Source of the DNA: a virus
Taxonomy: Duplodnaviria > Caudoviricetes
Reading direction: 5' to 3' (one strand)
DNA length: 63,344 bases
Virus record (IMG/VR): IMGVR_UViG_3300037228_000056
Span: 1 to 63,344 of that record
The position numbers and the translations under genes are program-made. Shown here piece after piece: positions 1 through 54,142 of the stretch. Position 1 is the stretch's first letter. Every line of letters starts with the position of its first letter. The notes under the pieces are model-generated. The model was not told the DNA's origin. It ran no database searches and saw only the letters and a list, made by a program, of their open reading frames with translations.

Positions 1-359
1 GCGAGGGCCTTCCAGTCCGGCTGCCAGCCAGACGGGAGCGAGTCGTAGTCAGACAGGTAGCTGGCCGTCTCGCGGATCGCGGCCGGGATGCCCGATCCGT
101 CAGTCAGGAGGACGCCGCCGGCGACGCGGGCGTCGGCCTCGCGCTCGAACTGGGTGCGGTAGGTGTAGGTGCCGTAGACGATCGGCCGGCCGTCCGCGTG
201 CACGCGGACCATGATCGTCGCCGATGCCTTGCGGTTGGCCTGGAACTCGTAGGTGTTGTCGTGGTCGGCCCACTCGGCCGACGCGATGACGGGCCAGATG
301 TCCTCGTCTATCTTGATCGGTGCGCGCCCGGTGAGGGTGATGGTGTGCTGCTTGCCCAT
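1..359 (-). CDS. Hypothetical protein, 3'-truncated by window edge (MGKQHTITLTGRAPIKID...)
   Basis: ATG at 359 with GAAAGGA SD (376-370); open to window start, so absent from the ORF track. Confidence 0.7.
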   Translation of the reverse strand, partial: MGKQHTITLTGRAPIKIDEDIWPVIASAEWADHDNTYEFQANRKASATIMVRVHADGRPIVYGTYTYRTQFEREADARVAGGVLLTDGSGIPAAIRETASYLSDYDSLPSGWQPDWKAL

Positions 360-478
360 GCCTGCGGTGTCCTTTCCGTTGTCCTGACCCTGGCTCATCA
401 GCGCGCGGCGGGTCAGTTCCGCGCGGACGGCCGAAGCCGTTTCGCCTTCGCCAGATGGCGGGCGGCAACTCGGGGCCG

Positions 479-697
479 TTAGCGGGCCTGGAGGCTGTAG
501 CCGTTGCGGCGCTGCCCGTCGTCGAAGATCAGGCCGGCGCGGAGCGCGCGCTGCACGGCGCGGGAGCCGTAGGCGTGGGACCCGTTGGGGCCGATGGCGA
601 TGGCGGCCTGCTGCTGGGTGCAGCCGGGGTGAGAGGCGACGTACTCGGCGGCGGCGGTCATCGCGGGGCCGATCCGGGGGGCCTTGGTGCTGGTCAT
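479..697 (-). CDS. Small winged-HTH-like protein
   Basis: 72 aa ORF with AGGAG SD; YVASHPGCTQQQAA...VQRALRAGLI pattern. Confidence 0.6.
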   Translation of the reverse strand: MTSTKAPRIGPAMTAAAEYVASHPGCTQQQAAIAIGPNGSHAYGSRAVQRALRAGLIFDDGQRRNGYSLQAR

Positions 698-738
698 CGT
701 GTGCTCCTAGGGGGTTGCGTTCCCTTGCTGATACCTCC

Positions 739-817
739 ACTATGCCAGTACAAGCGTACTCAAGTCAAGTAGGTTCCCAGGAAATTCTCGACAGCCCTAG
801 TACGCAGGTACTAGACT
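739..817. promoter_or_regulatory. Divergent promoters with two AGTAC-N4-GTACT operators
   Basis: Minus strand TTGACT-N18-CATAGT; plus strand TAGACT 7 nt before ATG 825; palindromes at 747-760 and 799-812. Confidence 0.6.
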
Positions 818-824
818 CGGTCCC

Positions 825-1310
825 ATGACAGCACTAGAGGCAGCCGCGCCCGAGAGCCGGCTACAGGTCCGGGTACCGGGCCGCACCACCGCATTCCTCG
901 CCGGCCGCGCCGAGCGCGCCATGACCGGCGCTAGCCTCAACCAGCAGGCCAGGAACGAGCTGAAGCTATGGCAGGCCGCACTCGCCGCCGAGCTGCACGG
1001 CATCAGGCTCACCGTCGCCCAGGCGTCATGCGTCGCCGACGTGCTCGGCGGCTCCCTGCTCACCGAGTCGGTCAGCCGCCCCGGCCGCGTCTACGCGGAG
1101 TGCTACGACGCGTTCAGGATCGCTGGCGCCGGCAGGTCGAGCTACGCCGAGAAGCACGGCATCGACGAAAGGGGGCTGCTGGACTACCTCGGGACGCTCG
1201 GCCCGGCCGCTGACCACGCCCTGGCCGACGCGATAGGCCGGTGGTGGGACCAGGAACTCGAGGCGACCGCCGAGGGATTCGCCGTCGCCGGCCTCAGGGT
1301 GACCGCGTGA
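825..1310 (+). CDS. Hypothetical protein, possible regulator, leaderless
   Basis: 161 aa ORF; -10 TAGACT 7 nt upstream. Confidence 0.65.
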   Translation: MTALEAAAPESRLQVRVPGRTTAFLAGRAERAMTGASLNQQARNELKLWQAALAAELHGIRLTVAQASCVADVLGGSLLTESVSRPGRVYAECYDAFRIAGAGRSSYAEKHGIDERGLLDYLGTLGPAADHALADAIGRWWDQELEATAEGFAVAGLRVTA

Positions 1311-2059
1311 GCCCCGGCGCCCCGGTGCGGGACTTCCTGCTCCGGGGCCACTACAGCGACACGCGGTCGCTCGGCCCGGACGACCTCGCGGCGATGCGCC
1401 CGGCCGCGCCGCCGAGGCCGCGCAAGCCCAGGGCGGCGCGGGTGGTTCCCGCGCCGGCCGTCACGCCCGCGTCGGACGTGGTGTTCGGCGGCATCGCGTG
1501 CTTCTGCGGCGAGCGGTTCGGCCCGGACCGGGCGGCTGAGTTCATGCTGCACCTGCGTGCCGAGGTGGGCGGCGACCTGGCCGAGCTGGCCCGGATCAGG
1601 GAGTGGCGCCGCAAGGTCGCCGGCAACCCCGGGTACCGGGCACGGCAGGCGGCGCGCGTCCGCGAGCGCAGGGCGGCGGACCCGGAGTTCCGCGAGCGGC
1701 TCAACGCGGCCCAGCGCGAGCGCCGGCAGCGCCCCGACGTGGCGGAGCAGCGCCGGGAGTACCAGCGGGCGCCCGCGCAGAAGGCGCAGCGGAACGCCAG
1801 GCAGGCCGAGCGGCGCCGGGAGCAGGCACGGCCGTGCCAGTGCGGGTGCGGGGAGATGACATCCCAGCCCGGCGTGAGGTACAAGGCCGGGCACCACAAC
1901 CGGGTGAAGCCGACCCGCGTCACCGACCCGGCGAAGGTAGCCGAAGCCGTGCAGCGCAGGAACGCGGGCGACGCGGTACAGCTGATCGCGACGGCGATGG
2001 GCGTGCACCCCGAGACGGTCCGGCGGTGGCTCCGCTCGCCTAACGGCCACGCGCAGTAA
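1307..2059 (+). CDS. Cys-motif plus C-terminal HTH protein
   Basis: GTGA overlap start; CQCGCG...GHHNR motif; IATAMGVHPETVRRWL HTH. Confidence 0.65.
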   Translation: MSPGAPVRDFLLRGHYSDTRSLGPDDLAAMRPAAPPRPRKPRAARVVPAPAVTPASDVVFGGIACFCGERFGPDRAAEFMLHLRAEVGGDLAELARIREWRRKVAGNPGYRARQAARVRERRAADPEFRERLNAAQRERRQRPDVAEQRREYQRAPAQKAQRNARQAERRREQARPCQCGCGEMTSQPGVRYKAGHHNRVKPTRVTDPAKVAEAVQRRNAGDAVQLIATAMGVHPETVRRWLRSPNGHAQ

Positions 2060-2101
2060 CCGCCTGGACTTCCCAGGCACGGGCAGAGAAGGGGTCAGCG
2101 C

Positions 2102-2374
2102 TCATCGCGCCCGCTCCGCCGATGCGTCGTCAATCTCATCGGCCACGAGGTCCGCCATTGACCGGAGCGCCTCCGCTGCCGTCGCGCCCTGGGCGAACAT
2201 GCCCGGCCGCGACGGGACCGACGCGACCCAGCCGCCGTCAAGGTCATCGGGACGCAAGATGACGGTCAGGTCGCGCCGCAATCCGGCCGCGACCCGGATG
2301 GCGCCTGCCGGGTCGGCCGCGCCGGGGTAGATGCCCCGGCCGACCGCGTAGCCGGGTTGGGTGAGGTCGCTCAT
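2102..2374 (-). CDS. HicB-like antitoxin domain protein (no HicA seen)
   Basis: DGGWVASVPSRPGMFAQGATAAEAL, the typical HicB N-domain pattern; ATGA overlap with the GntR gene. Confidence 0.75.
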   Translation of the reverse strand: MSDLTQPGYAVGRGIYPGAADPAGAIRVAAGLRRDLTVILRPDDLDGGWVASVPSRPGMFAQGATAAEALRSMADLVADEIDDASAERAR

Positions 2375-2703
2375 CCCATCTCCAGCCGTCTCTTGATCTC
2401 GTCCACGTCGGCACGGAGTTCGGCCAGCTGCTCACGGACGGCGGCGAGGCGGTCAGGCGCCCTCGGGACGCCGACCGGCTCCCGGTTCACCACGTAGGTT
2501 CCCGCTGACCTGACCGGCTGCACGTACCCTTGCTCGGCGAGCACCCTCATGGCCCGCTCGATCGTGGTCGTGGCGACGCCGTACTCCCTCGCCAGCGCGG
2601 TCTTGCCGGGCAGCTTGGACTGGAGCTGCCACTCGCCGGCGCCAATGCGCGACGCCATCTGGTCCGCTATCAGCCGGTAGCCCGGCCGGGAGTCGCCCGC
2701 CAC
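2371..2703 (-). CDS. GntR-family repressor (KorSA/TraR-like)
   Basis: YRLIADQM...LPGKTALAREYGVATTTIERAM...GTYV; probable leaderless GTG 2703 (TACGCT 6 nt upstream); divergent from the tra genes. Confidence 0.85.
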   Translation of the reverse strand: MAGDSRPGYRLIADQMASRIGAGEWQLQSKLPGKTALAREYGVATTTIERAMRVLAEQGYVQPVRSAGTYVVNREPVGVPRAPDRLAAVREQLAELRADVDEIKRRLEMG

Positions 2704-2967
2704 ACGCAAAGCGTAGAGCGTCCGCGATCTTCGCGGCAGTTCCCTGCCCGGCCCGGCTTTCGCCGTTGCCTTCCCGCCAACGTCTGGCATACTTGTAGCG
2801 TACAGCGAGTTAGCCAGTCCGGCACCGACGACCGAGACAAGCACGCATCCAAGGACGCCCGTCCCTCCCCGCTCACCTCGTTGTGCGGTTTCCCGGCGAC
2901 GATCACGACGCACGCGGAAGGCGGGGAGGGACGGGCCTTATCTGGAATGACTCAAGCGGAGGGCGCC

Positions 2968-4311
2968 GTGATAGCCGAGGAAAGCACGGACACCGCGAGC
3001 CCGCCGCTGGCACCGCCCGTCAGCCCGCCAGCCGAGGACGTGAAGCTCCAGGGCCGCCGCTGGCCCCTCATCGCCGCCATCGGCCTGGCCGCCGTGATCA
3101 CCGTCACCGCCGTCATCCACGGGATGGGCGGGAGGGACGCGCTGATAACCGGCGGCATCGTCCTGGCCGTGGCCGTCGTCGGCGTGGTGCTGTGGCGGCT
3201 GCCCCACCTTCGCCGCCACTTCGCCCGGCCTCGCGGGATGTCCCGCCGCATCCGGACCGAGCGCAGCCACCAGCGGCGGATACTGGGCGGCCACTCGCCC
3301 GGCAAGGGGCTCGGCCGTCTCGGGCTCGGCTCGGGCGCCGGTCACGGCAGGCGCGGCCGGGCCGGGGGCGGCTTGCCGCTCGCTGGCCACGGCCAGTCAG
3401 GCGCGCGGCGCGGCCTGCGGTCACGGCTCCCGGCGTGGGTGCCCGGCTCGGCCAGGCGCGCTCAGCGAGCGCAGGCGCGGGCAGCCGCCGCGAAGGCCGC
3501 CGGCGCGGCAGCGGGCAAGAAGGGCGCGCCGGCCGCGACAGGGAAGAAGGCCGCGGGGCCCGCTGCCAGGGGCCGCGCCGGCAGGAAGGCCGCGAGCGGC
3601 GCAACCGGGACCGGCGCGAAGCCGCCGCCTGCGGGTACCCGCAGGCGGCGCGCCCGGCGCAAGGCCGAGGCTGCCCTGGCGCTTCCTGCGGCCGGGGTCG
3701 CCGCAGCGGTCAGGCGGGCACGGCGCAGGAAGACCCGCAAGGCCGGCAAGGTGCCCTGCGAGCGGTGCGGCAAGCCCGCCAAGAGCGAGGTCACCTGGGC
3801 CGACGGCCACAACAAGGGCACCCAGATGCTGTGCGACGGCTGCTGGGAAAAGGGAACGGCAGCGGCGCGGGAGGAACTCGGGCTGACCGATGACGAGCCC
3901 GACCCGGAACGGCAGCCGGGGACCGCGATCAAGCCTGACGAGACGGCATCACCACCACCAGCGAGAGGACTCAGCATGAGCGGCATCGAGGCAGTGACAG
4001 AGGCGATCGACGCCCACATCGGCGGGTTCGAGCCCGAGAGCGGCGAGGATCTCGACCATTTCCTGGCCGGCCTGCCGGGACTGTACCAGTCGATGGGCGC
4101 GGCGCTGCAAAGGCTGGCCGACCGGTTCGGTGACGAGCTGCCGGTGCATCCCGCCGTCCGCGACCACATCGGCGAGATGGCCGCGACCACGGCCGGGCTG
4201 TCCGAGTTCGCGGATGAGGCGTACCGCATCCACCGGACGGCTCACGCTAAGGAAATGGAGCGGCTGGAGAATCCGAGACCTGGTGAAGAAATCTGGGATG
4301 TGAAACAGTGA
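2968..4311 (+). CDS. Membrane protein with C-terminal TraA-like domain (possible internal start at 3976)
   Basis: GGAGGG SD; two TM segments, basic linker, CxxC...CxxC; second SD GAGAGGA plus ATG 3976; directly precedes traB. Confidence 0.65.
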   Translation: MIAEESTDTASPPLAPPVSPPAEDVKLQGRRWPLIAAIGLAAVITVTAVIHGMGGRDALITGGIVLAVAVVGVVLWRLPHLRRHFARPRGMSRRIRTERSHQRRILGGHSPGKGLGRLGLGSGAGHGRRGRAGGGLPLAGHGQSGARRGLRSRLPAWVPGSARRAQRAQARAAAAKAAGAAAGKKGAPAATGKKAAGPAARGRAGRKAASGATGTGAKPPPAGTRRRRARRKAEAALALPAAGVAAAVRRARRRKTRKAGKVPCERCGKPAKSEVTWADGHNKGTQMLCDGCWEKGTAAAREELGLTDDEPDPERQPGTAIKPDETASPPPARGLSMSGIEAVTEAIDAHIGGFEPESGEDLDHFLAGLPGLYQSMGAALQRLADRFGDELPVHPAVRDHIGEMAATTAGLSEFADEAYRIHRTAHAKEMERLENPRPGEEIWDVKQ

Positions 4312-6284
4312 CAACTTTTCGCATCGCTGATCTATCGGAGACCGAGGGCAGCCCGCTAGCAAGGAGGCCGCGAATGCCCGCCCCCCGCAGCAAGCCCGAG
4401 CCGCACTGGTGGCGGCACGCGGCCGAGGTGACCCCGCTCGCCGCGCTGGCGCTGTTCGCCGCCGTGGCGCTGTCGCGCGCCTTCATGCTGCCGTGGTGGT
4501 GCGTCCCGGCAGGAGTCGCAGCGGCCGGCTTGTGCGCGCTGACGGCGGTCGCGGCGATCGCGGCCGAGCCCGTCGCGAACTGCTACGCCGCCGCGTGCTC
4601 GGCGATAGCGGCCGGGTGGGTCACCTACGCCTGCCTCACGTCGCCGTGGACGGTGCGGGCCGGGTTCGCGCTGGCCGTCCCGACCCTGATGGCCGGGATG
4701 CTGTACCCGGTCGTGGCCGGGCACCAGCGGCACCTGACCGAGAAGGCCAGGAAGGACGCGGAGGCGGCGCGGCGGGCGGCCGAGCAGCGCAAGTGGCCCG
4801 ACCTGCTGGCCAAGGCCGGGGCGCGCGGCGTGGCAGTCGTGGCGAACGAGGAGACGCGGGCGGGCCGGACGCTGCGGCTCGCCCTGCCCGCGAGCGGCCG
4901 GGTGACGTTCCGGAACCTTGAGCGGCTGGCCGACCGGCTGGAGACGGCGGGCAGGCTGCGCCACGGCGCGATCCGGTTCGAGCAGGGCGAGCACGCCGGG
5001 GAGGCCCTGATGCACGTCAGCGAGAAGGACATCCTGGCCCTGACCGTGCCCTACCCCGACGACCTGTCCGACCTGACCGTGAACAGGCCGTTCCGGGTCG
5101 GCACCTATGAGGACGGGTCGCTCGCGGACATCCTGTACCGCGAGATCAAGATCCTGATCGTGGGCCTGACCGGGGCCGGGAAGTCCAACACCCTCAACGT
5201 CCTGATCGCGCAGCTCGGCCGGTGCGTCGACACGGTCATCTTCATGATCGACCAGAAGGGCGGCCGGGCGGCGCTGCCCTGGATCCAGCCGTGGCTCCAG
5301 GGCCGCGCCCCGCGACCCGTCGTCGACTGGGTGGCCACCACCCGCGATGAGTCCGAGCGGATGCTGCGGGCGATCCTGCGCGGCATCGACGCCCGCGCCC
5401 ACTCCGGGGCCGGCGGCGAGAAGATCACCCCGTCTGCCGCGATGCCCGCCGTGGTGCTGATCATCGACGAGATGGCCGTGATCTTCGGCGCGCACGGGGG
5501 CCCGAGGATCGGCGCGGGCACCACCAACACCGCCCTCGCGGGCCTGGGCACGCAGATAGTCCAGCTAGGCCGGTCCGAGGCGATAGACGCCATCCTGGCC
5601 ACCCAGCGGGGCACCGTCACCATGACCGGCGGGGGCGACCTCAAGTCCCAGTGCCGGCTCAGGATCGGGCTGGGCGTCGCCAGCGAGGCGGACGCGCGGA
5701 TCATCATCCCCGACAACGCCTCCGTGGCCCGGCTGCTCCCGAAGCTGAAGCATCCGGGGACCGGCATCATCTCGCTGGGCGATGACGCGGTGAAGCCGCT
5801 GAAGTTCGACCGGCTGGAGAACGACCGGATCAGCGCGATAGCCGAGGAACTCGGCCACCGCCGCCCGGAGCCCGACGAGGTGCTCGCCGCCGCACTGGGC
5901 GACGACTACGCGCTGCGGTGGACCTCGGAGCGAGCGGGCCACATCCCCGGCTTCGCCCGCGCTGCGGTGCTCGCCGCCCCCGGCCGCGATGTCGACTGGG
6001 ACGGCGAGTTCGAGCGGCTGACGGCAGGCCAGTTCCCCGCCGCGCCCCAGCCCGAGCCAGAGCCGGACGGCAAGCCGCCTCACCCGGCGCGGGCGCGGAT
6101 GCTGGAGATCCTCCGCCAGCGCGGCGTGATGGGCGCGACCCCGGCGGACCTGCACAGGCGGCTCACCTCCGAGGGCCTGGCCGTGGCCAGGGAGACCGTG
6201 CAGCGCTGGCTCAAGGACGAGGAGAAGGCGGGCAACGTGAGGAACGCGACCTACGGCCGGTGGAAGGCGGTTCGCGGTGACTGA
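4308..6284 (+). CDS. traB: FtsK/SpoIIIE-family conjugal DNA translocase (TraB-like)
   Basis: N-terminal TMs, Walker A GLTGAGKS, IDQKGG, Walker B LIIDE, ATQR, C-terminal wHTH (RETVQRWL...GRW). Confidence 0.85.
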   Translation: MTTFRIADLSETEGSPLARRPRMPAPRSKPEPHWWRHAAEVTPLAALALFAAVALSRAFMLPWWCVPAGVAAAGLCALTAVAAIAAEPVANCYAAACSAIAAGWVTYACLTSPWTVRAGFALAVPTLMAGMLYPVVAGHQRHLTEKARKDAEAARRAAEQRKWPDLLAKAGARGVAVVANEETRAGRTLRLALPASGRVTFRNLERLADRLETAGRLRHGAIRFEQGEHAGEALMHVSEKDILALTVPYPDDLSDLTVNRPFRVGTYEDGSLADILYREIKILIVGLTGAGKSNTLNVLIAQLGRCVDTVIFMIDQKGGRAALPWIQPWLQGRAPRPVVDWVATTRDESERMLRAILRGIDARAHSGAGGEKITPSAAMPAVVLIIDEMAVIFGAHGGPRIGAGTTNTALAGLGTQIVQLGRSEAIDAILATQRGTVTMTGGGDLKSQCRLRIGLGVASEADARIIIPDNASVARLLPKLKHPGTGIISLGDDAVKPLKFDRLENDRISAIAEELGHRRPEPDEVLAAALGDDYALRWTSERAGHIPGFARAAVLAAPGRDVDWDGEFERLTAGQFPAAPQPEPEPDGKPPHPARARMLEILRQRGVMGATPADLHRRLTSEGLAVARETVQRWLKDEEKAGNVRNATYGRWKAVRGD

Positions 6285-6345
6285 GCCGGGGCGGAAAATG
6301 CCCGCGACCCCAGAGCTAGATGAGGCCGTTTCTGAAGGTGTGACA

Positions 6346-6495
6346 GTGATCCGGGGCGGTGACCTGCCAGGATCACGGATCCCGGCGCTGAGCAGGCAAA
6401 ATCACGGCGGATCACGATCACACCTCACTCACACCTCACACCCGGAATCACTGTCCCGATCACTGCCGGATCACTCCCTGGGATCACATCCGTGA
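6346..6495. repeat. (G/A)ATCAC repeat cluster, candidate clt (TraB recognition locus)
   Basis: Copies at 6371, 6400, 6410, 6416, 6446, 6458, 6469, 6482; inverted copy at 6346; additional TCAC runs; immediately 3' of traB. Confidence 0.6.
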
Positions 6496-6830
6496 CCCGC
6501 CGGGGAACGGTCGCGGTGCTCGTCATCACCGCCGCGGTGGCAGGCGACGGGATCGGCCGCGAGCAGGACGCCATGGCCCGCGTGCTGCACGTCACGGTGA
6601 TCACGGTCGGCTCGGCCGTCCTGGCGCTCGTGGTGGTGGCGGTGACCTGGGTGACCGCCCGCAGGCGGCACCGGAGGCGGTCCCGCCGCGTCATCACCCC
6701 CCCGCCTCCCCGCCGCGTCCTGCCTGCTGAGGCGCCATTCGGGCCGCCCGTGCGCAAGCCCGGCCGCCCCCTGGCCGTGAACCCCGCGCCGGTCCCCCTG
6801 ACCGGCGCCGTCACCGAGGAGATCGCATGA
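6492..6830 (+). CDS. Small membrane protein (Spd-like)
   Basis: TM segment followed by Arg/Pro tail; lies in the coupled operon after traB. Confidence 0.5.
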   Translation: MTRRGTVAVLVITAAVAGDGIGREQDAMARVLHVTVITVGSAVLALVVVAVTWVTARRRHRRRSRRVITPPPPRRVLPAEAPFGPPVRKPGRPLAVNPAPVPLTGAVTEEIA

Positions 6831-7060
6831 CCCAGCTCATCGAGGTGCTTGCCGCCCTGGCCCTGACATGGGTGGTCCGCGCCCGGTTCTGGCCCTACGC
6901 CCAGTGCCGCAGGTGCGAGGGCCGCAAGGTCAACGTCGGCAGCAACGGGAAGCGCTACGGGCTATGCGGCAAGTGCCATGGCGCGGGCTCGCGCGTCGTG
7001 CTCGGCGCGAGGACGGTGCGGCGGGTTCTGCACGCGCCGTCACTGGACAAGAAGGGATGA
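6827..7060 (+). CDS. Membrane-anchored DnaJ-like Zn-finger protein
   Basis: CRRCEG...CGKCHG; GAGGAG SD; ATGA overlaps. Confidence 0.7.
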   Translation: MTQLIEVLAALALTWVVRARFWPYAQCRRCEGRKVNVGSNGKRYGLCGKCHGAGSRVVLGARTVRRVLHAPSLDKKG

Positions 7061-7860
7061 CCGTGGCTGACCACGCGAAGAGGTTCCCGCGCTGGCCGCT
7101 GATGCTGATAGCCCTGTCAGCGATGACCGCGATCTGGGGCGGCTGGGTCTCGCTCGGCGCGCTGACAGGGTTCGGCATGGTCCGGCTTGACCCTGGCATC
7201 CGGCCGGCGGTGAGCGTCGACCTGGCGCTGACGCTGCCGGTGTCGGTCGAGGCGTACGCCGCCTACGCCCTGGCCGCGTGGCTGGGACCGTGGCAGGTGC
7301 CCGCCAGGGCGCGCAGGTTCGCGATGTGCTCGGCCGGCTTCGCGCTGCTGCTCGGCCTGTCGGGGCAGGCCAGCTACCACCTGCTGGCGGCTCATCACGC
7401 CCGCAGCGCGCCCGCGCTGGTGACGGTCCTGGTGTCGTCCGTGCCGGTCATCGTGATCGGCTGCGCGGCCACGCTGACCCACCTGCTGCGAGGCTCAGCC
7501 GAGCCGTCTGCTGACGTGTCAGCGCAGCCGCGCCAGGTGCACCCGCTGACGGCCGCGCTGATAGCCCGCGTCGCCCCTGCGCCCCCGGCTGTCAGCCAGC
7601 CACCGCCTGAGCCTGCCAGCGTCCCGTCAGCGCCGCCCCGCCGCAAGCCGTCACCGAGGCGCGCTGCGAGCACCAGGGCCGAGCGGGAGCAACAGCAGCG
7701 GGACCGGGTGAGAGCCGCGCTGACAGCCGACCCGAAGGCTACGGTCAGGGACATAGCCGGGCGCGAGGGAGTGTCTGAGGCTACCGTCGCGCGGGTCAAG
7801 AAGGCGATGCGGGAAGAGTCCGCCGGGCCTGTCAGGCTGCACTCGGTGGCGGGAGAGTGA
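7057..7860 (+). CDS. SpdA/SpdB2-like (DUF2637-like) membrane protein with C-terminal HTH
   Basis: Four TMs, LPVSVEAY motif, Pro-rich linker, TVRDIAGREGVSEATVARV. Confidence 0.75.
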   Translation: MTVADHAKRFPRWPLMLIALSAMTAIWGGWVSLGALTGFGMVRLDPGIRPAVSVDLALTLPVSVEAYAAYALAAWLGPWQVPARARRFAMCSAGFALLLGLSGQASYHLLAAHHARSAPALVTVLVSSVPVIVIGCAATLTHLLRGSAEPSADVSAQPRQVHPLTAALIARVAPAPPAVSQPPPEPASVPSAPPRRKPSPRRAASTRAEREQQQRDRVRAALTADPKATVRDIAGREGVSEATVARVKKAMREESAGPVRLHSVAGE

Positions 7861-7888
7861 TGGCCATGGTGAGAGAGGATCGGGGATC

Positions 7889-8322
7889 ATGAGCAAGCGG
7901 ACCCACTGCGACGGGTGCGGAACCGGGCTGAGCCTCCGCAAGGGCGGCGCACCCGAGGATGACGACAACTTCCCCGTCCGTTACGTCCACGGAGAGCACA
8001 CGAGCGGGAGCGATGTCCGCGAGCTGCCTAAGCCGGGCGGCGAGTTCGACTGGTGCGGACCCTGCGCCTTCGCCGCCTTCGCCGCCGTCCGCGACGCCAA
8101 CGCCGGGCGACGACGGGCATGAGCGACCCGTGCCCGGCAGCCACCCGGGCCATGACCAGCCGCCTGAGGCTCGCATGGTGGTGGACGCGCGGCCTCCTGG
8201 TGTGCTACGGCCAGCACTCAGGCGGGACGGCTTTCCGCAAGCGCAGGCCCGGCCACCCCGGCAGGCACCGGACCGGCAACGGGCAACTGCGCTGGAAACG
8301 GGGGCCAGCCGGGATCACCTGA
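7889..8322 (+). CDS. Two small hypothetical genes (7889-8122 Zn-ribbon-like; 8119-8322)
   Basis: CDGC...WCGPC; ATGA coupling. Confidence 0.5.
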
Positions 8323-8361
8323 CCGCAGTCAGGCCAGGGTCGGAAATGAGAGGCTGAGACA

Positions 8362-8976
8362 GTGACCTGGATTGCGAAGTGGAACAAGGCAATGCGCTGG
8401 GTTCTCCTTGCCTGCGCAGCGCTGGCGTGGGCCTTCATCGTCCCCCTGGCGAGCCGCGACTGGGCGGTGATCCTCCCCGCGCTCCTCATCACCGGCTGCG
8501 CCGTCCTGTACTGGCAGGTCGCCACCGCGATCTACTGCAAGGCGGCACCGTTGCCGCCCGTGGACTATGCCCGGATCACCGAGCTTGAGATGGACCTCTA
8601 TGGCGAGACGTTCCGCCACGACGGGGCACCGGAACCGCCTGCCGCGCCTGTACGCTCACCGGAGCACCAGCACGGGTACTCAGCCGCGCCCGGCAGTGAA
8701 CGCGAGATAGGGCTTTTCACCGAAGGGTCAGCGCAGCCGGCCGGCCGCGTGGTGAACCTCACGCGGTGGAGCGGGATCAGCGGCGGCTCGTTCATGTCGG
8801 CCGAGTACATCCTCGGCGACCTCGATGCGCGCATCGCCAGGACGTGGTCCGTCCCGCCGCCGCAACCCGGCTACGGCACGGACTCGCGGATCACCGATCT
8901 CCTGAACTCCTGCCGCCGTGGATTCATCAGCCCCAGCGATGTTGAGCGCCTGATTCGCGAGTTGCCGCCGTCCTGA
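8362..8976 (+). CDS. Hypothetical membrane protein
   Basis: Two N-terminal TMs; GAGAGG SD. Confidence 0.55.
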   Translation: MTWIAKWNKAMRWVLLACAALAWAFIVPLASRDWAVILPALLITGCAVLYWQVATAIYCKAAPLPPVDYARITELEMDLYGETFRHDGAPEPPAAPVRSPEHQHGYSAAPGSEREIGLFTEGSAQPAGRVVNLTRWSGISGGSFMSAEYILGDLDARIARTWSVPPPQPGYGTDSRITDLLNSCRRGFISPSDVERLIRELPPS

Positions 8977-9030
8977 CGGGGTGCCCCGCGCGCTAATCTC
9001 GGCAGTAACCACGCGCACCGGGAGTGATAG

Positions 9031-9702
9031 ATGGCATCCGACGGCAACTGCCCAGGTTCCTGCAACGCCGCTCTCCGCAGGATCCTCGTCGGCGGAGGGG
9101 AAGTGCCCGAGGACATGCTGCCGGTGCCCGGCGATCCGGTTTTCTGCGCCAGGGACGCCGCCGCGCTCCGCCGGGAGCTGGCCGAGCTGGACGACCTCGC
9201 GTCGATCGCCGCCGCCGCCGCCGACGGGCACCGGGGAAGCCCGGAGCGCCAGCGGGTGGGAGGCACCCCGCGGACCGCGTCGCCCTCTCCGTGCGCCGAC
9301 GACCTCGACGACCTGGCCTCGGCGCTGAGGGGTTGGGAGTCCGCGATCCGCGGCGAGGACCCGCTGCCCCGCCGCGGCTACCTGGCCACCGAGATCACCA
9401 CCGTCACGGCGTGGCTCGTCACCCACTTCGACGCGCTGATCACGCACCCTGACATCGCGGCGGAGTTCGCGGCCGAGATCAGGGAATGGCACAAGCGCCT
9501 CGCAGCGGCCTCGAAAGCGGGCACCGGCCGCCACCAGAAAGGGCGCCCGTGCCCGCGCTGCGACCGCTACAGCCTGTTCTGGACCGAGGGCACCGACTAC
9601 ATCGAGTGCGGCACCCCCGAATGCGGCCGGCTGCTCTCGCTGACGGAGTACGAGTCCTGGGATACCGCGTACCCGCACCTTGAAGACGCGCGGGCATCCT
9701 GA
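9031..9702 (+). CDS. Zn-finger protein, candidate late-gene regulator
   Basis: C-terminal CPRC...C-GTPEC; sits directly before a strong promoter and the packaging genes. Confidence 0.6.
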   Translation: MASDGNCPGSCNAALRRILVGGGEVPEDMLPVPGDPVFCARDAAALRRELAELDDLASIAAAAADGHRGSPERQRVGGTPRTASPSPCADDLDDLASALRGWESAIRGEDPLPRRGYLATEITTVTAWLVTHFDALITHPDIAAEFAAEIREWHKRLAAASKAGTGRHQKGRPCPRCDRYSLFWTEGTDYIECGTPECGRLLSLTEYESWDTAYPHLEDARAS

Positions 9703-9711
9703 CCCCGCTGC

Positions 9712-9739
9712 TTGACAACTCGCGCGACCCCCCTAAACT
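9712..9739 (+). promoter_or_regulatory. Housekeeping-sigma-type promoter (candidate late promoter)
   Basis: TTGACA-N16-TAAACT. Confidence 0.65.
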
Positions 9740-9761
9740 CGCAAGCAGCAGAGCGACGTAT

Positions 9762-9801
9762 GCCTCCGGACGGGATTACCCGCCGGGGGCTGTTCTTGTT
9801 T
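9762..9801 (+). terminator. Promoter-proximal intrinsic terminator/attenuator
   Basis: GCCTCCGG-A-CGGG ATTA CCCG-CCGGGGGC stem followed by TGTTCTTGTTT. Confidence 0.6.
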
Positions 9802-9807
9802 GCGGGG

Positions 9808-10074
9808 GTGAGCGCCCCCGTGGAACTCCCGGCGCCGGCACCGGACGGCGTCACCTACGTGGTCACCAAGACCGCCGCGGCGCTGATCGGCGTCGCGGAA
9901 TGCACGATCACCCGCTGGCGCACCGCGGGCTACCTCAGCCCGGTGGAAGGCAGCCCGCCGCGAAGGCCGCTCTACCGCTGGCCTGATGTCGTTGAGGCCG
10001 AGTACCTCGCGCGGCAGGCCGCGATAGCCGCATCGGGAACCGACGCCCAGGTACGGCGGATCCGTGCCGCTTAG
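9808..10074 (+). CDS. MerR/excisionase-like HTH protein
   Basis: TKTAAALIGVAECTITRWRTAGYL...PLYRW. Confidence 0.7.
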   Translation: MSAPVELPAPAPDGVTYVVTKTAAALIGVAECTITRWRTAGYLSPVEGSPPRRPLYRWPDVVEAEYLARQAAIAASGTDAQVRRIRAA

Positions 10075-10083
10075 GAGGCTCCC

Positions 10084-10527
10084 GTGACCGCACCCCGCAC
10101 CCGCGAGGGCCTGCGGCTCGCCGTCGAGCTGTACTCTCACGAGCGCGGTGACGACTTCACGGGCGACGCGGTACTGCATGCCGCTGATATCTTCGACGAG
10201 CGGCTCGCGGAGTGCCCGCTGGAGCTTCCCGCCACCGGGCCGCAGATCCTCTCGGCCCTCGAAACGATCATCACCAGCCAGGAGAACATCATGACCGCAC
10301 TGACCGACCTGCAGGCCGCCGACTCCGCGCTCCAGGCCGAGGTGGCGACGTTCCTCGCCGACATCGCCACGGCGCTCCAGGCCGAGAACCCCGACATCGA
10401 GCAGGTCGTCTCCGACATCAACGCCCAGGTGGCAGCGCTCCAGGCAGCGGACCCGGCGAACGCTGCCCCCGTCACGCCGCCGGTAACCCCCCCGGCCGCT
10501 TCCGCAGCGCCGGGCGTCTCCAACTAG
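10084..10527 (+). CDS. Hypothetical coiled-coil protein
   Basis: AGGAGG SD; 147 aa. Confidence 0.6.
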   Translation: MTAPRTREGLRLAVELYSHERGDDFTGDAVLHAADIFDERLAECPLELPATGPQILSALETIITSQENIMTALTDLQAADSALQAEVATFLADIATALQAENPDIEQVVSDINAQVAALQAADPANAAPVTPPVTPPAASAAPGVSN

Positions 10528-10542
10528 CGCCGCGGGACCATC

Positions 10543-11127
10543 ATGGCCACGGGAGCGCGCGGGGGCACCGGGCGCTTCCGGCGGACCGTGGAGTCCGCTG
10601 CGCGCGACATGCGCGCGGCGGAACTCCACGGCCAGGGCTGGACGCACCAGCGCATTGCCGACGAACTCGGATTCGCGCACCGCGGCAAGGCGACGGAGGC
10701 GATCCAGCGCGCGTTCGCGTCCATCCCCACCGAGGGCGCGGAGATGGCCAAGCGCATCGACCTCGAGCGCATCGACCAGCTGATCGAGAAGAACTGGGAA
10801 GTCCTGGAGCGCCAGCACGTCACGGTCAGCCAGGGCCGCGTGGTGCGACGGTTCACCGGTGTGGAACGGCACGCCGACGGCATCGAGAAGCTGGACGCCG
10901 ACGGCAAGCCCATCCCTGTCTTCGAGGACGTGCTGGACGACGGCGCGGTAGCCACCTCGAGCACCGTCATCCTGCGGCTGCTGAAGCGCCGCGCGGAAAT
11001 GTACGGGTACGACGAGCCGGTGCACACGCGGGTGGAGATCGTGCCGCCCGAGGTGATCGAGGCCAACATCGCGCGGCTGGAGCTGGAGCTTGCCGGCAAC
11101 GACCCCGCTCGTCCAGGCGCCGCTTGA
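10543..11127 (+). CDS. terS: Terminase small subunit
   Basis: HTH GWTHQRIADELG, C-terminal RRAEMYGYD; overlaps the start of terL. Confidence 0.75.
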   Translation: MATGARGGTGRFRRTVESAARDMRAAELHGQGWTHQRIADELGFAHRGKATEAIQRAFASIPTEGAEMAKRIDLERIDQLIEKNWEVLERQHVTVSQGRVVRRFTGVERHADGIEKLDADGKPIPVFEDVLDDGAVATSSTVILRLLKRRAEMYGYDEPVHTRVEIVPPEVIEANIARLELELAGNDPARPGAA

Positions 11128-13933
11128 CCGGCTCCGCTACCTGCAGGAGCTTCAGCGCCGGTCAGCGCAGATCAAGCGGGGGGTGGCGAGGTACTACGAC
11201 GACCCGCTCGGGTTCGCGGCCGACTGCATCGACTGGCGCGGCGGGGGGCTGAAGGAGTACCAGCAGGAGATCATCGGCGAGCTGCCGTCCCGCAAGCGCG
11301 AGGCGGTCCGCGGGCCCCACACGCTCGGCAAGTCCACGATCGCCGCGGTCGCCGTCCTGTGGTTCGGGCTCACGCGCGATGCCGCGGGCGTTGACTGGAA
11401 GGTCGCGACGACCGCCGGGTCATGGCACCAGCTGACGAGGTACCTCTGGCCTGAGATCCACAAATGGTCCGGGCGCCTGCGCTGGGACAAGGTGCGCGAC
11501 GGGCGCCCGTTCACCCGGCAGGAGCTTCAGAACCTCAACCTTCGCCTGAGCCACGGCGCCGCGTTCGCGGGAGCCAGTGCCAACGCTGCGCTGATCGAGG
11601 GCGCGCACGCAGACTCGCTGATGTTCATCTACGACGAGTCCAAGGCGATCCCCGCGGGCACGTTCGATGCCTGCGAGGGCGCGTTCGGCGGCACGGGCGA
11701 GGCGCTCGCCCTGGCGCTCTCCACTCCCGGAACGCCAGCGGGCCGGTTCTACGACATCTGCACCCGCCGCGCCGGCTACGAGGACTGGCACCCGGTCCAC
11801 GTCACGCTGGAACGGGCGATAGCCGCGGGCCAGGTCGATGAGGCGTGGGCTGACCAGCGCGCACGGCAGTGGGGCACCCAGTCGGCGATCTACGTCAACC
11901 GGGTGCTCGGCGAGTTCCACGCCGGCGACGAGGACTCCGTGATCCCGCTCGCGTGGGCTGAGGCCGCGGTGATCCGCTGGCTTGAATGGGATCTCGCCGG
12001 AAGGCCCGGAACCGAGTCGGCGTGGCCGCGGACCGTCGGCGTGGACGTGGCCAGGTCGGGCTCGGACAAGACGGTCCTGGCACCGCGCCGCGGCCCGGTG
12101 ATCATCGACCTTCGCCGCTCGGTCAAGGAAGACACGATGCAGACCACTGGCCGCGTGAAGGGCGTCCTTGACGCTGACCGGGGGCGCACTACCCCCGTGG
12201 TGGACGTGATCGGCATCGGCGCGGGCGTCGTCGACCGGCTCCGCGAGCAGGAGTACCGCGTTGAGGCGTTCAACGCATCGGCCCGCAGCGATCGCCTCGA
12301 CGCCACGGGCGAGCTCGGGTTCATCAACTGCCTAACCGGCGATGCGCGCGTCACTCCGGTCGGGAACCTCCGGCGCATCTACCGGAGTCGCCACGAGGGA
12401 CCGCTTCTCCAGGTCGAAACGGCCAGCGGCGACCACTTCACCGCCACCCCGAATCACCAGGTACTGACGCTCCGGGGATGGGTCGCGGTCCAGTCGCTCC
12501 GCGTGGGCGACAAGCTCTGCGATGCCTCGGTCCGTAATGCGCCGGATGCAGCCGCCGTTCGGCCAGAAGTAGACGACGTGCCACCCAAGCTCAGCGAGGT
12601 CTATCGCGCGGCTGACGTTGTGTTCGGATCGGAACGGGTGCAGCGCGGGACTGTGGACTTCCATGGCGACCGACCTGCGGGTGAGGTCGATGTTGTAACG
12701 ATCGACCGCCGACTGCTGGCCCGTTATCCATCCTCCGGGCAGTGCGCCGAGCACCATCAGTTCATCAGGCTTCTGATACTGGCGGGTCAACTCCCGCGTC
12801 CGGGAGCGCTTGCGCATGCGGTCGGGGTGCGTGACCGGATAGGACGGATAGCTGCGTCCCTCCCAGACGGGAGGATGCCTTGTCCCGCGCTCCCTTCGCT
12901 GGGCGAGGGTGAGCCGGTTGAGGACGAGATTGTTCGCCTCGGTGATCGTTCGCGCCGTGACGCCATGGTCACTCAGGACGCGGTAGATAATCCGTTCAGA
13001 GTGACCGTAGGCGAGCGCCAGCGTCTTGGCCGATTCCCCCTCCATGTAGCGCCGGACGACCTCAGGCTCGTCAAGGTGAACCGTGCGGGTGAGGCGCATG
13101 GACTCGGCGTGCACGCGGGCCGTGACCTCGGCTTCGCTCAGGACGCGGCGAACCGCGTAAGGGTCAACTCCGAACGCCTTGGCCAGCGCGTGCACCGACT
13201 CGCCGACCGCGTAGCGGGCGACGAGGGCTGCGGAATCGACATTCGCGGCGGTCGCGAGCCTGGTGGCCTCGGCTTGGCCGCGTGGCTTGATTCCGTGTAC
13301 GTCAAGAACCTCGCGGATGGTGCTCCGGTCGGTCCGGTAGAGCTTGGTCAGCGAGTTAAGGGACTCGCCGGCGAGATAGCGCTGGATGAGGTCATCAGAG
13401 TCGAACTGACTGCGCCTGCCCTTGGGCATGAGGCACCTTTCGTTTACACGCTCGAAACGTCTACGGGGTCCTACGGTACCGCCAATGTGGTACATCGGAA
13501 CTGCCGGTCGGCGGCCTGGTGGGGCCTGCGCGAGATGCTGGACCCGTCATCAGGCTCGGAGGTCTGCCTTCCCGACGACGACATGCTTCTTGGCGACCTC
13601 TCGGCGCCGCAGTGGAAGGTGCTGAGCGGCGGCAAGATCCAGGTGGAGTCCAAGGAGGAGATCACCAGGCGCCTCGGCCGGTCAACGGACGACGGCGACG
13701 CGGTAGTCCAGGCTTTCTGGCTCACGTCGGCCCCGCATCAGGCGAACGCCCGCCAGTATGCCCTGCAGGCCGAGCTGGACGCGCTGACCCGTCCCGCCGA
13801 TCCGCGCCGCAGGCTGGCCGGTGATCCCTCGCGGCACGACGGCCGGCGTGATGACGGCTGGTCGCTGGACTCATTCGCGCCGCAGGAAGACGCGGGAAGG
13901 CCGGCGCGGCCTAACGTGCACTCGTGGCGCTGA
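11090..13933 (+). CDS. terL: Terminase large subunit containing an intein
   Basis: Walker A GPHTLGKS, Walker B FIYDES, nuclease GVDVA and DDGDA; spliced junction reads GFIN/CRSAAWWGLREML. Confidence 0.92.
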   Translation: MPATTPLVQAPLDRLRYLQELQRRSAQIKRGVARYYDDPLGFAADCIDWRGGGLKEYQQEIIGELPSRKREAVRGPHTLGKSTIAAVAVLWFGLTRDAAGVDWKVATTAGSWHQLTRYLWPEIHKWSGRLRWDKVRDGRPFTRQELQNLNLRLSHGAAFAGASANAALIEGAHADSLMFIYDESKAIPAGTFDACEGAFGGTGEALALALSTPGTPAGRFYDICTRRAGYEDWHPVHVTLERAIAAGQVDEAWADQRARQWGTQSAIYVNRVLGEFHAGDEDSVIPLAWAEAAVIRWLEWDLAGRPGTESAWPRTVGVDVARSGSDKTVLAPRRGPVIIDLRRSVKEDTMQTTGRVKGVLDADRGRTTPVVDVIGIGAGVVDRLREQEYRVEAFNASARSDRLDATGELGFINCLTGDARVTPVGNLRRIYRSRHEGPLLQVETASGDHFTATPNHQVLTLRGWVAVQSLRVGDKLCDASVRNAPDAAAVRPEVDDVPPKLSEVYRAADVVFGSERVQRGTVDFHGDRPAGEVDVVTIDRRLLARYPSSGQCAEHHQFIRLLILAGQLPRPGALAHAVGVRDRIGRIAASLPDGRMPCPALPSLGEGEPVEDEIVRLGDRSRRDAMVTQDAVDNPFRVTVGERQRLGRFPLHVAPDDLRLVKVNRAGEAHGLGVHAGRDLGFAQDAANRVRVNSERLGQRVHRLADRVAGDEGCGIDIRGGREPGGLGLAAWLDSVYVKNLADGAPVGPVELGQRVKGLAGEIALDEVIRVELTAPALGHEAPFVYTLETSTGSYGTANVVHRNCRSAAWWGLREMLDPSSGSEVCLPDDDMLLGDLSAPQWKVLSGGKIQVESKEEITRRLGRSTDDGDAVVQAFWLTSAPHQANARQYALQAELDALTRPADPRRRLAGDPSRHDGRRDDGWSLDSFAPQEDAGRPARPNVHSWR
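12329..13501 (+). mobile_element. Intein in TerL (391 aa), no sense-strand endonuclease
   Basis: Cys1 CLTGDARV, block B TATPNHQV, block F VYTLET, end VVHRN|C. Confidence 0.85.
12332..13429 (-). CDS. Antisense intein-embedded putative homing endonuclease (3x HTH + DUF559/Vsr-like domain), 365 aa
   Basis: GAAAGGTG SD 4 nt before ATG 13429; three RY..GES...L.....S/D.....L repeats; E...Q..VDRYNIDL...AMEVH...H...R..L..LGWHVVYFW. Confidence 0.8.
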   Translation of the reverse strand: MPKGRRSQFDSDDLIQRYLAGESLNSLTKLYRTDRSTIREVLDVHGIKPRGQAEATRLATAANVDSAALVARYAVGESVHALAKAFGVDPYAVRRVLSEAEVTARVHAESMRLTRTVHLDEPEVVRRYMEGESAKTLALAYGHSERIIYRVLSDHGVTARTITEANNLVLNRLTLAQRRERGTRHPPVWEGRSYPSYPVTHPDRMRKRSRTRELTRQYQKPDELMVLGALPGGWITGQQSAVDRYNIDLTRRSVAMEVHSPALHPFRSEHNVSRAIDLAELGWHVVYFWPNGGCIRRITDRGIAELVAHAERLDRDPSPERQYLVIRGGGEVVAAGRFDLEKRSLVATPVDAPEVPDRSDARIAG

Positions 13934-13953
13934 GCCGAATGTATTCTTGACGC

Positions 13954-14494
13954 ATGGTCAATGAAAGTCGGCCCGGAGAGCTTATCGGAGCGTCTGGGGT
14001 GGCGTCGCGTCTCGGTATCTCGCGACAGCGCGTCAACGATATCCGCAGGGACGCGCGGCTTTGTTTCCCAGAGCCTGCCTTCGCGCCTGGAGGCAGGGCA
14101 CTGTGGTGGGCAGCCGACATCGACGCTTACGCGGCGACCCGGAACACGCGGCCAGGACGCCCGAAGGCTGCCGATCCGGTGCTCCGCATCCCGGCCGGAA
14201 CGGTCCGGCCCGGCGACAAGATCCGCCTTTACTCCGAGGGCACCTTCTCTGAACCGGTAGCGGCGACGCTAACGGAGTACCCCGACGGGCTTCGGTGGTC
14301 CCGTCCTGACATCCGTGCCATCGGCGAGCAGTCGCGCGCTGATGATCTCCGCAAGCTCGGCATGACTGAGGCCGATGCGCGCGCCGACCTCGACGCGATC
14401 AATGCGGCGATTGCGACCGCGCCGAAGCCGTGCAAGCACCCCCCATGTCCTCAAGGGCTGGTGCAACGACTGCAAGACCGGCGGTCACTACTGA
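13954..14494 (+). CDS. AlpA-like HTH protein, probably frameshifted at C6 run 14439-14444
   Basis: Leaderless (TATTCT 6 nt upstream); IGASGVASRLGISRQRV...FPEP; removing one C gives CKHPHVLKGWCNDC...TGA 14494. Confidence 0.5.
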
Positions 14495-14497
14495 GAA

Positions 14498-14582
14498 CCA
14501 GGATGCCCCTGCTCTCCCGGTTGAGCTACGGGCCGGATCGCCAGCCCGACGGGATTCGAACCCGCAACCGAGGGCATCCCGG
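14498..14582 (-). ncRNA. Circularly permuted tRNA-like RNA (YrlA/Y-RNA-like architecture)
   Basis: Order 5'->3': T-arm GCGGG TTCGAAT CCCGT, acceptor stem closed by CGAT loop, TA, D-arm GCTC AACCGGGA GAGC; enclosed by a 12-bp terminal stem. Confidence 0.7.
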
Positions 14583-14613
14583 CCCTGTTGCCGATCCTAA
14601 AGGCAGGCACGCG

Positions 14614-15143
14614 ATGACCCTTCCCCGCACCGACACCGCAGCGGCGCTGAGGCTCGCAGGCAGGCGAGACGAGATCCACCCGGCAGATGCCATGGCATTC
14701 ACCTACCCGGACCGGGAGTACTTCGAGGCGTCGGCGAAACGGGACCGCGAGAACAACGGCAACGAGGTCATCGGGCCGTTCGAGACGGACGAGGGCCTGA
14801 TCGGCATCGTGAGCATGCAGCCGCAGATGCGCGCGCGGGGATGGGAAGTCACCGATCCCGCGCTGCCCGACGACTACGGTCCCGGTGCCGTGAAATCCCG
14901 CGCGGTCTGACCATGGCCGTAGTCCTCTACACCGCCCAGCGCGACCTTCAGGTCTGGTCCGCCGTCGCCTCGTGGATCGCGCCGGCGGGAAGCAACCTGC
15001 CGCTTGACGACTGCAGCCCGTTCACTGCCGGCCTGCTGGCGGCGGGAGGGATCGCGCTGGCGCCGCCGGGATCAGTCGACACGGCGAGCCCGGCGAACAT
15101 CGAAAGAGGCATGCCCGGCCTCAAGGTCGGGGTGAGCAACTAA
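14614..15143 (+). CDS. Two hypothetical genes (14614-14910; 14913-15143)
   Basis: SD-like AAAGGCAGG before ATG 14614; ATG 14913 lies 2 nt after the stop. Confidence 0.55.
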
Positions 15144-15723
15144 CCGCGAGTCCACGCGCCGTCCTGCCACCAGTCGCCGCCGTGCTCGCGGCTCAGGTCG
15201 TTCGCCTCGGCGAAGGTCATCGCGAACTGGTGGTAGACCTCGCCTGGCCGGCCGGCAACGACGCGCGCGATCGTCTCGCGGGCGCTCTGCCGCGCTGAAT
15301 CCGCCGCCCGCTGCGCGTAGTAGTCCTCAAGCGCTTGCGGGCTGCCGTCCATGAGTATCCACGAGTCCGTGCCGGTGGAGAACACGGCGAGGTTGCCGTC
15401 TGGCTGCCTGATGATCTGATGGCCCACGGTTAGCCGATCACCGAGCGCCAGTCCACGTTTCTCGCGAGATCCTCGTAGTCGCGCCGGGCCTGAGTCGCGC
15501 GCTCGATCGCCTCGGCGACGGCAGCGCCGGTCATGCGCGCGCAGATCGCGTCCGTGATCCGTTCCGCAGTCGCCTGGTCGGCCATCTCGTCAACCACGTC
15601 CAGCAGGTCGCAGGTGTACCGGACCTGCTGACAGTAAAGCGCCTCGGTCATGAGCACTCGCCGGGCGTCGCCGTGACGGGACAGGTGCTCGCGCAGCCGG
15701 ATCGCTGATGACATCTCGGGCAT
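15140..15723 (-). CDS. Two antisense moron genes (15430-15723; 15140-15427)
   Basis: Leaderless -10 TACGCT 6 nt before ATG 15723. Confidence 0.6.
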
Positions 15724-54140: not shown

Positions 54141-54142
54141 CC

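Follow-up and report, generated by a model that had tools for sequence, protein, structure and literature searches.

Can a tailed phage carry, next to its packaging genes, a plasmid-type apparatus for moving its own DNA from cell to cell? The question is raised by IMG/VR record IMGVR_UViG_3300037228_000056, where positions 2102-7860 had been read from the letters as a TraB/Spd conjugation module inside a virus of the Caudoviricetes (hereafter, the original prediction). The window considered here is the entire record, a linear sequence of 63,344 b with a CheckV completeness of 65%, in which 89 genes were called by third-position GC and scanned against Pfam, PHROGs and NCBIfam (Table 1). It represents most of the genome of a temperate siphovirus, whose host is probably a high-GC, Streptosporangiales-like actinomycete and probably filamentous. 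Sequence comparison shows genuine homology between the module and TraB transfer units of the plasmid type, among them that of the plasmid-prophage pZL12, and we lean, by analogy with such units, towards the reading that a GntR-controlled TraB pump would dock on its own repeat array and move phage double-stranded DNA (dsDNA) between hyphal compartments or cells without capsids.

The first part of the answer lies in the translocase itself. TraB carries the motor motifs of its class (Walker A GLTGAGKS at residues 286-293, Walker B VVLIIDE, and ATQRG), with K292, S293, E388, Q433 and R434 invariant in the alignment of its homologues, and its best NCBIfam match is plasmid_TraB (NF041214, E 1.9e-22). 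Hydropathy places hydrophobic segments at 38-62, 68-86 and 118-136, and the AlphaFold model (mean pLDDT 73) shows a RecA-type core with N-terminal helices at 32-58, 65-85, 88-110 and 116-169 and a C-terminal winged helix at 593-654 (helices 593-608, 612-621 and 628-641, strands 644-646 and 652-654; pLDDT of the block ∼82-92). At the top of the Foldseek ranking stood the dsDNA-bound motor of FtsK (6t8b, E 8.7e-15) and TcpA, a coupling protein of conjugation (6o1w, E 1.7e-14). Its motifs and its model describe a motor of the FtsK/TcpA type that is intact, anchored in the membrane and furnished with a winged helix, in agreement with what had been supposed of TraB. Its matches are better in plasmids (32% identity for pFQ12, 30-35% for Streptomyces plasmids, 52 records) than in cultured phages (25-30%, 12 records). 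The gene directly upstream likewise bears out the TraA-like gene of the original prediction: its product combines two predicted transmembrane helices, a long basic low-complexity tract, a CxxC...CxxC zinc ribbon and a conserved C-terminal domain of ∼105 residues (∼340-454). A predicted complex of TraB with this partner domain obtained a score of 0.01. All genes of the module are open, with high third-position GC.

Directly behind traB follows a putative site for the pump. RATCAC occurs nine times within 150 nt (6346-6487), against a maximum of four per 150 nt elsewhere in the window and also four in 200 Markov simulations, so that the repeat locus noticed earlier stands. The site begins with a conserved leader, continues with an inverted pair GTGATCC/GGATCAC (6346-6376), and ends with seven further direct copies of RATCAC up to 6487. 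An excess of GGATCAC over the whole window (32 vs 9.45 expected) was set aside, as dinucleotide shuffles lose codon structure and the strands are balanced. With an E limit of 1e-3, a search for homologues of TraB returned 289 proteins, the closest of them 45-72% identical, and 39 genome loci and 71 metagenome loci were considered. When the 300 nt 3' of traB were scanned for repeats in 94 loci, an A/T-containing hexamer repeated four to six times was found in eight (L009, L041, L044, L046, L049, L068, L088, L093), four of which (L041/L044, L046, L049, L068) share the leader-plus-array layout of the window, each with its own word: a stop codon, then AAAA-GCGCG-CAGAG, an inverted word pair, CTGACCTGC and the array. 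The repeat word is GATCAC, GACAGT/GACAC or GTCAGC/GTCACC depending on the element, and the presumed recognition helix of TraB also varies between elements with different words. Among the loci examined, those with orphan chromosomal pairs have GC-rich words only after traB, and no array. On the Frankia plasmid pFQ12, an 8-bp word, GACGCAAG, directly follows the TraB gene in four exact direct copies plus inverted copies. The available text of one source describes clt sites as 8-bp direct repeats read by TraB (PMC4447253), and that of another gives the clt of pIJ101 as an inverted repeat plus direct repeats (PMC3583192); by their sequence, the arrays of the window and of its relatives follow this design. 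The winged helix of TraB would dock on the RATCAC array.

Control of the operon would fall to a short GntR protein. The GntR gene is divergent from the rightward operon that begins at 2947; its start is probably the ATG at 2790, the reading frame being open up to 2913, and its product has at most 180 aa, probably 139, and consists of the winged-helix DNA-binding domain alone. A relative, locus L059, has a 91-aa GntR protein in the same divergent position. The HicB-like gene lies downstream, overlapping the GntR stop by 4 nt, and is co-transcribed with it. Between the divergent genes, the palindrome and the inverted repeat with 25-nt arms listed in Table 1 are candidate operators for the GntR protein. 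The plasmid pSN22 has the gene order traR-traA-traB, and regulators of the TraR/KorA type are ∼240-250 aa at full length. TraR-His of pSVH1 is given as 28.2 kDa in the text available of PMC4447253.

Beyond the array, stops and starts overlap at 6827/6830 and 7057/7060, forming a coupled operon of small genes with transmembrane segments beside traB. A homologue of the first product (38.6% identity over 101 aa) holds the same post-TraB position in L043 and L047. The third (7057-7860) has 158 relatives in actinomycete genomes and metagenomes, and by these matches belongs to a widespread uncharacterised actinomycete family; its architecture resembles DUF2637, and its Atlas neighbours are DUF2637 clusters at 0.85-0.88, which we take as a lead only.

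These components can be arranged into a mechanism. By the kil-kor logic of TraR/TraB, the short GntR repressor would control the divergent operon, which would yield the TraA-like membrane partner and TraB; TraB would form a membrane-anchored pump of the FtsK type, its fold taken from the model and its assembly presumably hexameric. Docked through its C-terminal winged helix on the array observed just downstream of its gene, the pump would carry the dsDNA genome of the phage, or of the excised prophage, through the cross-walls at septa or into an adjacent hypha, probably helped by the small downstream membrane proteins, and the phage genome would spread in the mycelium or into a recipient without capsids.

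Several observations weigh against this reading. TraB stays far below the equivalog cut-off of plasmid_TraB (79.5 vs 800 bits), and its identity to the plasmid and pZL12 proteins is just 25-35%. The regulator has no C-terminal effector/oligomerisation domain, the HutC/PhnF models of NCBIfam matching in its N-terminal 60-70 positions only; the predicted repressor is retained for its divergent winged helix (PF00392, E 5.8e-11) and not as a protein with the effector domain of the TraR/KorA type. The products of 6492-6830, 6827-7060 and 7057-7860 have no above-cut-off match in Pfam, NCBIfam, PHROGs or PADLOC, whether to Spd families or to others (no direct comparison with SpdB2 was made), and what remains of the Spd-like genes is that small, coupled transmembrane genes follow the array, homology to known Spd proteins not having been detected. 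Membership of 7057-7860 in DUF2637 (PF10935) was rejected, with no Pfam match at E up to 0.1 and an hhalign comparison with five DUF2637-type proteins of relatives (three with a Pfam DUF2637 match, two matched to phrog_733 only) that aligned the helix-turn-helix (HTH) alone, at a probability of 32%. As to context, the 39 genome loci share no further window gene, inteins aside; the closest full-length genome relatives (41-68% identity) are orphan pairs, and the four genome loci scanned with Pfam are surrounded by ordinary chromosomal genes. Orphan chromosomal pairs without arrays imply that the pair can persist without transfer.

Such orphan pairs bear on an alternative in which the pump is not conjugative: it would clear or segregate the DNA of phage or prophage at septa, be they vegetative or those of sporulation, in the manner of FtsK/SffA-type proteins, or partition an episome into spores, and the array would be a loading or centromere-like site. 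The fold of TraB is equally close to chromosomal FtsK, orphan pairs sit in non-mobile chromosomal contexts, and in phages of the Hiyaa type the pair is annotated merely as a DNA translocase. Yet the nearest named family is plasmid TraB and not FtsK, and the pair is common to small plasmids and to the tra unit of pZL12. It is also patchy: among 81 genomes of one family, seven have it at E up to 1e-60. Moreover, no plasmid Rep and no ParA/ParB was recognised in the protein scans of the window, a linear record that is 65% complete, and a phage with an integrase has no need for active partition, which counts further against segregation; we hold this alternative to be unlikely.

The relatives of the pump show in what company it travels. 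The genome loci, mostly from Streptosporangiaceae or unclassified metagenome-assembled genomes of Actinomycetota, have the partner C-domain directly upstream of the TraB homologue in 35 of 39 cases. In six of them (L005, L007, L017, L018, L024, L033) the orphan pair occupies one syntenic site between Ppx/GppA phosphatase and nitroreductase-like genes, with neither a repeat array nor mobile genes within 10 kb. The closest metagenome loci (57-72% identity) are short contigs of mobile-element or phage type. L045 and L059 share the order divergent GntR, DUF2637 protein, 60-aa open reading frame (ORF), 462-aa partner, 66-aa ORF, TraB; near the TraB relative lie an HNH endonuclease (phrog_374) in L044, and a phage-type helicase and a DUF2637 protein in L046. 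In L049 and L068, TraB converges on an endolysin/holin cassette, the amidase of L068 being 63% identical to that of the window. L093 has a tape measure by PHROG match and L091 a tape-measure-like protein, matched by tblastn to that of the window only; both loci also carry a Neck1 protein. L094 carries RecET, and other distant loci have early regions rich in HNH or methyltransferase genes. In independent contigs, TraB relatives are thus found next to phage genes time and again. In a maximum-likelihood tree made by a quick method, with 104 rows (six references, the window and 97 of the 110 loci, the other 13 having been dropped as short or intein-bearing), the window belongs to a clade of 15 rows (SH-aLRT 99) that comprises all eight rows with phage-type or mobile-element-type context, with seven chromosomal-type rows nested in it. 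Searches of viral_contigs, with the single TraB protein and with the alignment of its homologues, gave no close relatives. Some TraB homologues are split by LAGLIDADG inteins akin to the portal intein of the window (L030, L031, L032, L083, L085, L092, L103, L104; P0054, P0118).

A separate question is whether the module is part of this phage. Phage-type genes flank it on both sides (phrog_26193 at 825-1310; phrog_1568, a MerR-like gene and phrog_645 at 9031-11127), GC is uniform at 0.71-0.74 across 1-12 kb, and the called genes of 2947-13933 are tightly packed and all on the plus strand, hence co-oriented with the packaging genes as had been stated. The scans of the window found no tRNA gene, second integrase, Rep or flanking direct repeat around the module that would mark an internal boundary, in line with the absence of an element boundary in the original prediction. 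An actinomycete integrative and conjugative element (AICE), defined as Int + Rep + Tra (PMC3218068), lodged in the phage with att sites of its own was rejected on the same grounds, neither Int, Rep, tRNA nor att being found near the module. Structural genes and a homologous tra unit do stand in one record, and the claim of a module inside a tailed phage holds to this extent, the linkage coming from one assembly.

It is here that the remaining contrary observations belong. An independent sample, from permafrost, yielded contigs almost identical to the window over 1-1854, 2072-2964, 6985-8041 and 8291-17894; a 1,953-nt contig of this sample matches 1-1854 and then diverges, and one of 5,723 nt (run X2) matches 8291-12228 with 1,785 other letters on its left. 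Contigs that diverge at 1854 and 8291 indicate that close relatives carry something else in the slot. Among the listed contigs of X2-X5 none spans 1854-2072 or 8041-8291, so the link of module to phage rests on one assembly, of a record that is linear and incomplete. The contigs of the independent sample break in the 240-nt gap after 7889-8122. X4 and X5 gave short identical pieces within ∼1786-7543 only and almost nothing over 13.8-18 kb, which reflects missing cover and does not count as evidence; contig joints were left out of account where their sides measured 20-28 letters, since these are probably repeats. A comparison with related phages did not find the module to be shared: among 27 viral loci related by their large terminase (TerL), with at least 7 kb upstream, TraB of the window's type occurs in none and a distant match (26-28%) in three, and a homologue of 7057-7860 in two.

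A false linkage, in which metagenome assembly joined the module of another phage, a plasmid or an AICE to this genome at shared sequence, would account for divergence at both module borders, for a linear metagenome contig and for terminase relatives without the module. Against it stand the phage-type genes on both sides, the uniform GC and the packed, co-oriented genes, the lack of an integrase, Rep, tRNA or att-like repeat near the module, and the TraB relatives repeatedly linked to phage genes elsewhere; the very sample with the diverging contigs also contains window-like ones (1-1854, 2072-2964, 6985-8041) with few differences, and breaks at gene borders are what phage mosaicism would produce. 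We judge such a joining error improbable. The borders of the module are mosaic joints, and what occupies the pre-packaging region here is an accessory cassette, mosaic and descended from plasmids, outside the core of the lineage.

An accessory cassette could also be a moron with another role, such as excluding superinfecting phages or incoming plasmids or mobilising host DNA, or else a decaying remnant. The PHROGs category of such FtsK-like genes is moron/host takeover, there is a weak PADLOC match to mad8 (E 2.2e-9), and orphan pairs without arrays exist; the PADLOC match, however, spans the P-loop core only, no motor motif is damaged, the genes are all open and rich in third-position GC, and relatives keep array and leader in the same position. 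We see little chance that this explanation applies, and retain a pump for the phage's own genome as the favoured reading.

How far the module is new depends on the comparison with known systems, the closest being the Streptomyces plasmid-phage pZL12, or phage ZL12 (GQ919031). By its GenBank annotation it is, like the window, the genome of a tailed phage in which a GntR gene stands divergent and structural genes of phage type lie close by. The tra protein pZL12.71c aligns with TraB of the window over 564 aa including the membrane region (25% identity, E 6e-23), and pZL12.72c shares the partner domain of the TraA-like protein (29% identity, E 5e-11); 72c and 71c are followed by genes similar to mycobacteriophage structural proteins. 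According to the available text of two sources, conjugal transfer of pZL12 needs the tra gene and two neighbours (PMC3583192, PMC5431353). The two elements also differ. pZL12 is a plasmid-prophage, circular and 90 kb in size; in the window a tyrosine integrase is present, and genes for plasmid replication or partition were not recognised; a short-repeat array was not seen in the 259 nt after 71c, and the host groups are not the same. The Streptomyces plasmid system, for example that of pSVH1 in the accessible part of PMC4447253, shares with the window a GntR regulator divergent from the transfer operon, a TraB that is FtsK-like, anchored in the membrane and provided with a C-terminus for DNA recognition (predicted in the window), short direct repeats as a cis site, and translationally coupled small membrane genes. 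It differs in the score of TraB given above, in a regulator that in the window is without effector domain and in SpdB2, of which no homologue was detected here, and the element of the window is a phage with capsid, tail and lysis genes. Thoma et al. (2015) proposed, in the text available of their article (PMC4447253), that Spd (SpdB2) homologues of actinophages such as phiC31 and VWB might help phage DNA to spread.

The best plasmid match is pFQ12 (AY027524), at 32% identity over 71% of TraB. On pFQ12, pADI95-16c, pAGRA3207_2 and other plasmids, a partner gene precedes TraB as in the window; unlike it, the three named plasmids have no virion genes and longer partner proteins (524-580 aa). In the Streptomyces phages Hiyaa, Keanu, Galactica and Spocter, a gene with the partner domain also lies directly upstream of a TraB/FtsK-like gene, the product of which is 27-28% identical to that of the window and annotated only as DNA translocase. 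In Hiyaa, the one of the four that was examined, no GntR is annotated in a 13-kb stretch and no array was seen in the 254 nt after gp102. The kind of module is thus already known and rare (pZL12), and FtsK-like genes were already annotated in cultured Streptomyces phages. What the window adds is an integrase-bearing phage, with a host that is likely not Streptomyces, together with a partner domain that can be delimited and arrays that form a family, each specific to its element. In the open literature, which does not extend to subscription papers, we found no description of such a module in an integrase-bearing phage of a non-Streptomyces actinomycete.

Table 1. Position and supporting matches of the features of the transfer module and of the surrounding phage genome.
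Feature	Position	Strand	Match or remark
HicB-like gene, 90 aa	2102-2374	-	phrog_497 E 3.7e-4; no Pfam match
Short GntR regulator	2371-∼2790	-	PF00392 E 5.8e-11, 42.3 bits vs cut-off 27
Divergent control region	2791-2946		palindrome TGTAGCGTACA at 2794-2804; inverted repeat 2857-2881 / 2912-2936 (25-nt arms)
TraA-like partner, 454 aa	2947-4311	+	stop overlaps TraB start
TraB-type translocase, 658 aa	4308-6284	+	phrog_31069 FtsK/SpoIIIE-like, E 9.3e-48
Non-coding clt-like site, 207 nt	6285-6491		directly after traB stop
112-aa protein, single transmembrane segment	6492-6830	+	first gene past repeat site; hydropathy
77-aa zinc-ribbon protein	6827-7060	+	translationally coupled; no family match
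267-aa membrane protein, C-terminal HTH	7057-7860	+	HTH_23 E 3.3e-4, below cut-off
77-aa zinc-ribbon ORF	7889-8122	+	last gene ahead of 240-nt gap
Large terminase with intein	11090-13933	+	phrog_2, Intein_splicing; 4.8 kb downstream of module, co-oriented
Terminase intein	12326-13498	+	Pfam Intein_splicing and PHROG matches
Mu-type portal with Hint/LAGLIDADG intein	15708-18378
MuF-like protein gene			among siphovirus structural genes
Major capsid protein	25485-26396		phrog_1650, E 1.4e-68
Tape measure	33416-37087		alongside tail tube and minor tail proteins
Amidase endolysin	48958-49722		accompanied by holin
Tyrosine integrase	53873-55132	+	PF00589 E 2.4e-17; phrog_1 E 4.8e-30
Small leftward genes	56-63 kb	-

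The rest of the record is that of a phage throughout, with GC between 0.62 and 0.74 across the whole window. Its sole integrase sits 46 kb from the module, beyond the virion genes; since this integrase is internal and phage-type genes reach to either end, the record does not represent a prophage trimmed at att sites. Neither a tRNA gene nor an Rfam family was found in the window, and a megablast of positions 1-25000 against cultured phages gave zero matches. The suggested check of circularity gave no support for a circle: there is no terminal repeat, and an in-frame join of the end ORFs (357 aa) is unsupported by relatives. The left end of the record falls inside a gene. Homologues of this gene, ∼135 aa long, continue beyond the window end by 12.5 residues (median), and the ORF at the right end has no relation to these homologues. 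Among cultured-phage records, the closest major capsid protein (41% identity) is that of PP395638.1 (L112), labelled Microcystis phage, the early region of which also encodes an 809-aa FtsK-like protein.

Sigma-70-like promoter matches in 1-11500 number three (vs 0.2 expected), and a terminator scan of the same stretch found zero. A promoter-like site for the virion genes lies at 9712-9739. At 739-817, back-to-back sigma-70-like matches stand between a leftward gene ending at 740 and a rightward gene starting at 825, and this is likely an early switch region.

The intein of the large terminase is confirmed by an intein-free allele, as contigs of runs X2 and X3 from the independent sample join 12325 to 13499 and skip exactly 1173 nt. 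The portal presents a further peculiarity. Its intein ends THN/C at ∼17512, and in the junction region (17512-17605) follows a stretch of ∼85 nt of low GC (0.40-0.50 vs ∼0.70) with a TTA codon (17553) and a stop codon, beyond which the portal resumes in the +1 frame. The independent sample is identical to the window across 15593-17894, with zero differences, so the frame break is not a sequencing error; the junction recalls the UUA-linked bypass candidates of phage Hau3, as far as these are described in the available text of PMC10732093. The idea that TTA codons on virion genes select between virion and conjugation finds no support, since only four in-frame TTA codons occur in the 89 genes, a single one of them in a virion gene (the portal ORF, nt 17553), and none in 2102-7860. 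Between the MuF-like and capsid genes, a 477-aa protein (20012-21445) shows a weak 2'-5' RNA ligase-type domain, with a Pfam match below cut-off (E 2.6e-5) and phrog_14859 at E 1.3e-4.

A bolder and rather doubtful extension is that this integrase-bearing siphovirus acts both as an AICE and as a virus, its excised dsDNA passing between hyphae through the action of a TraB pump of its own, which would read a private code of short repeats (RATCAC here; GACAGT, GTCAGC and others in relatives). The orphan chromosomal pairs would then be domesticated or decaying copies, which could in trans move DNA with a matching array. The pairing of pump and site is testable, as each related element has its own repeat word beside a variable recognition helix, and the partner domain defined here accompanies the TraB clade whether the carrier is a plasmid, a phage or a chromosome. 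Should the module function as its plasmid counterparts do, temperate phages of mycelial actinomycetes would have spread without virions as a second and ordinary route. Prophages and integrative conjugative elements would then be less sharply separated, and this would bear on how infections cross hyphal cross-walls.

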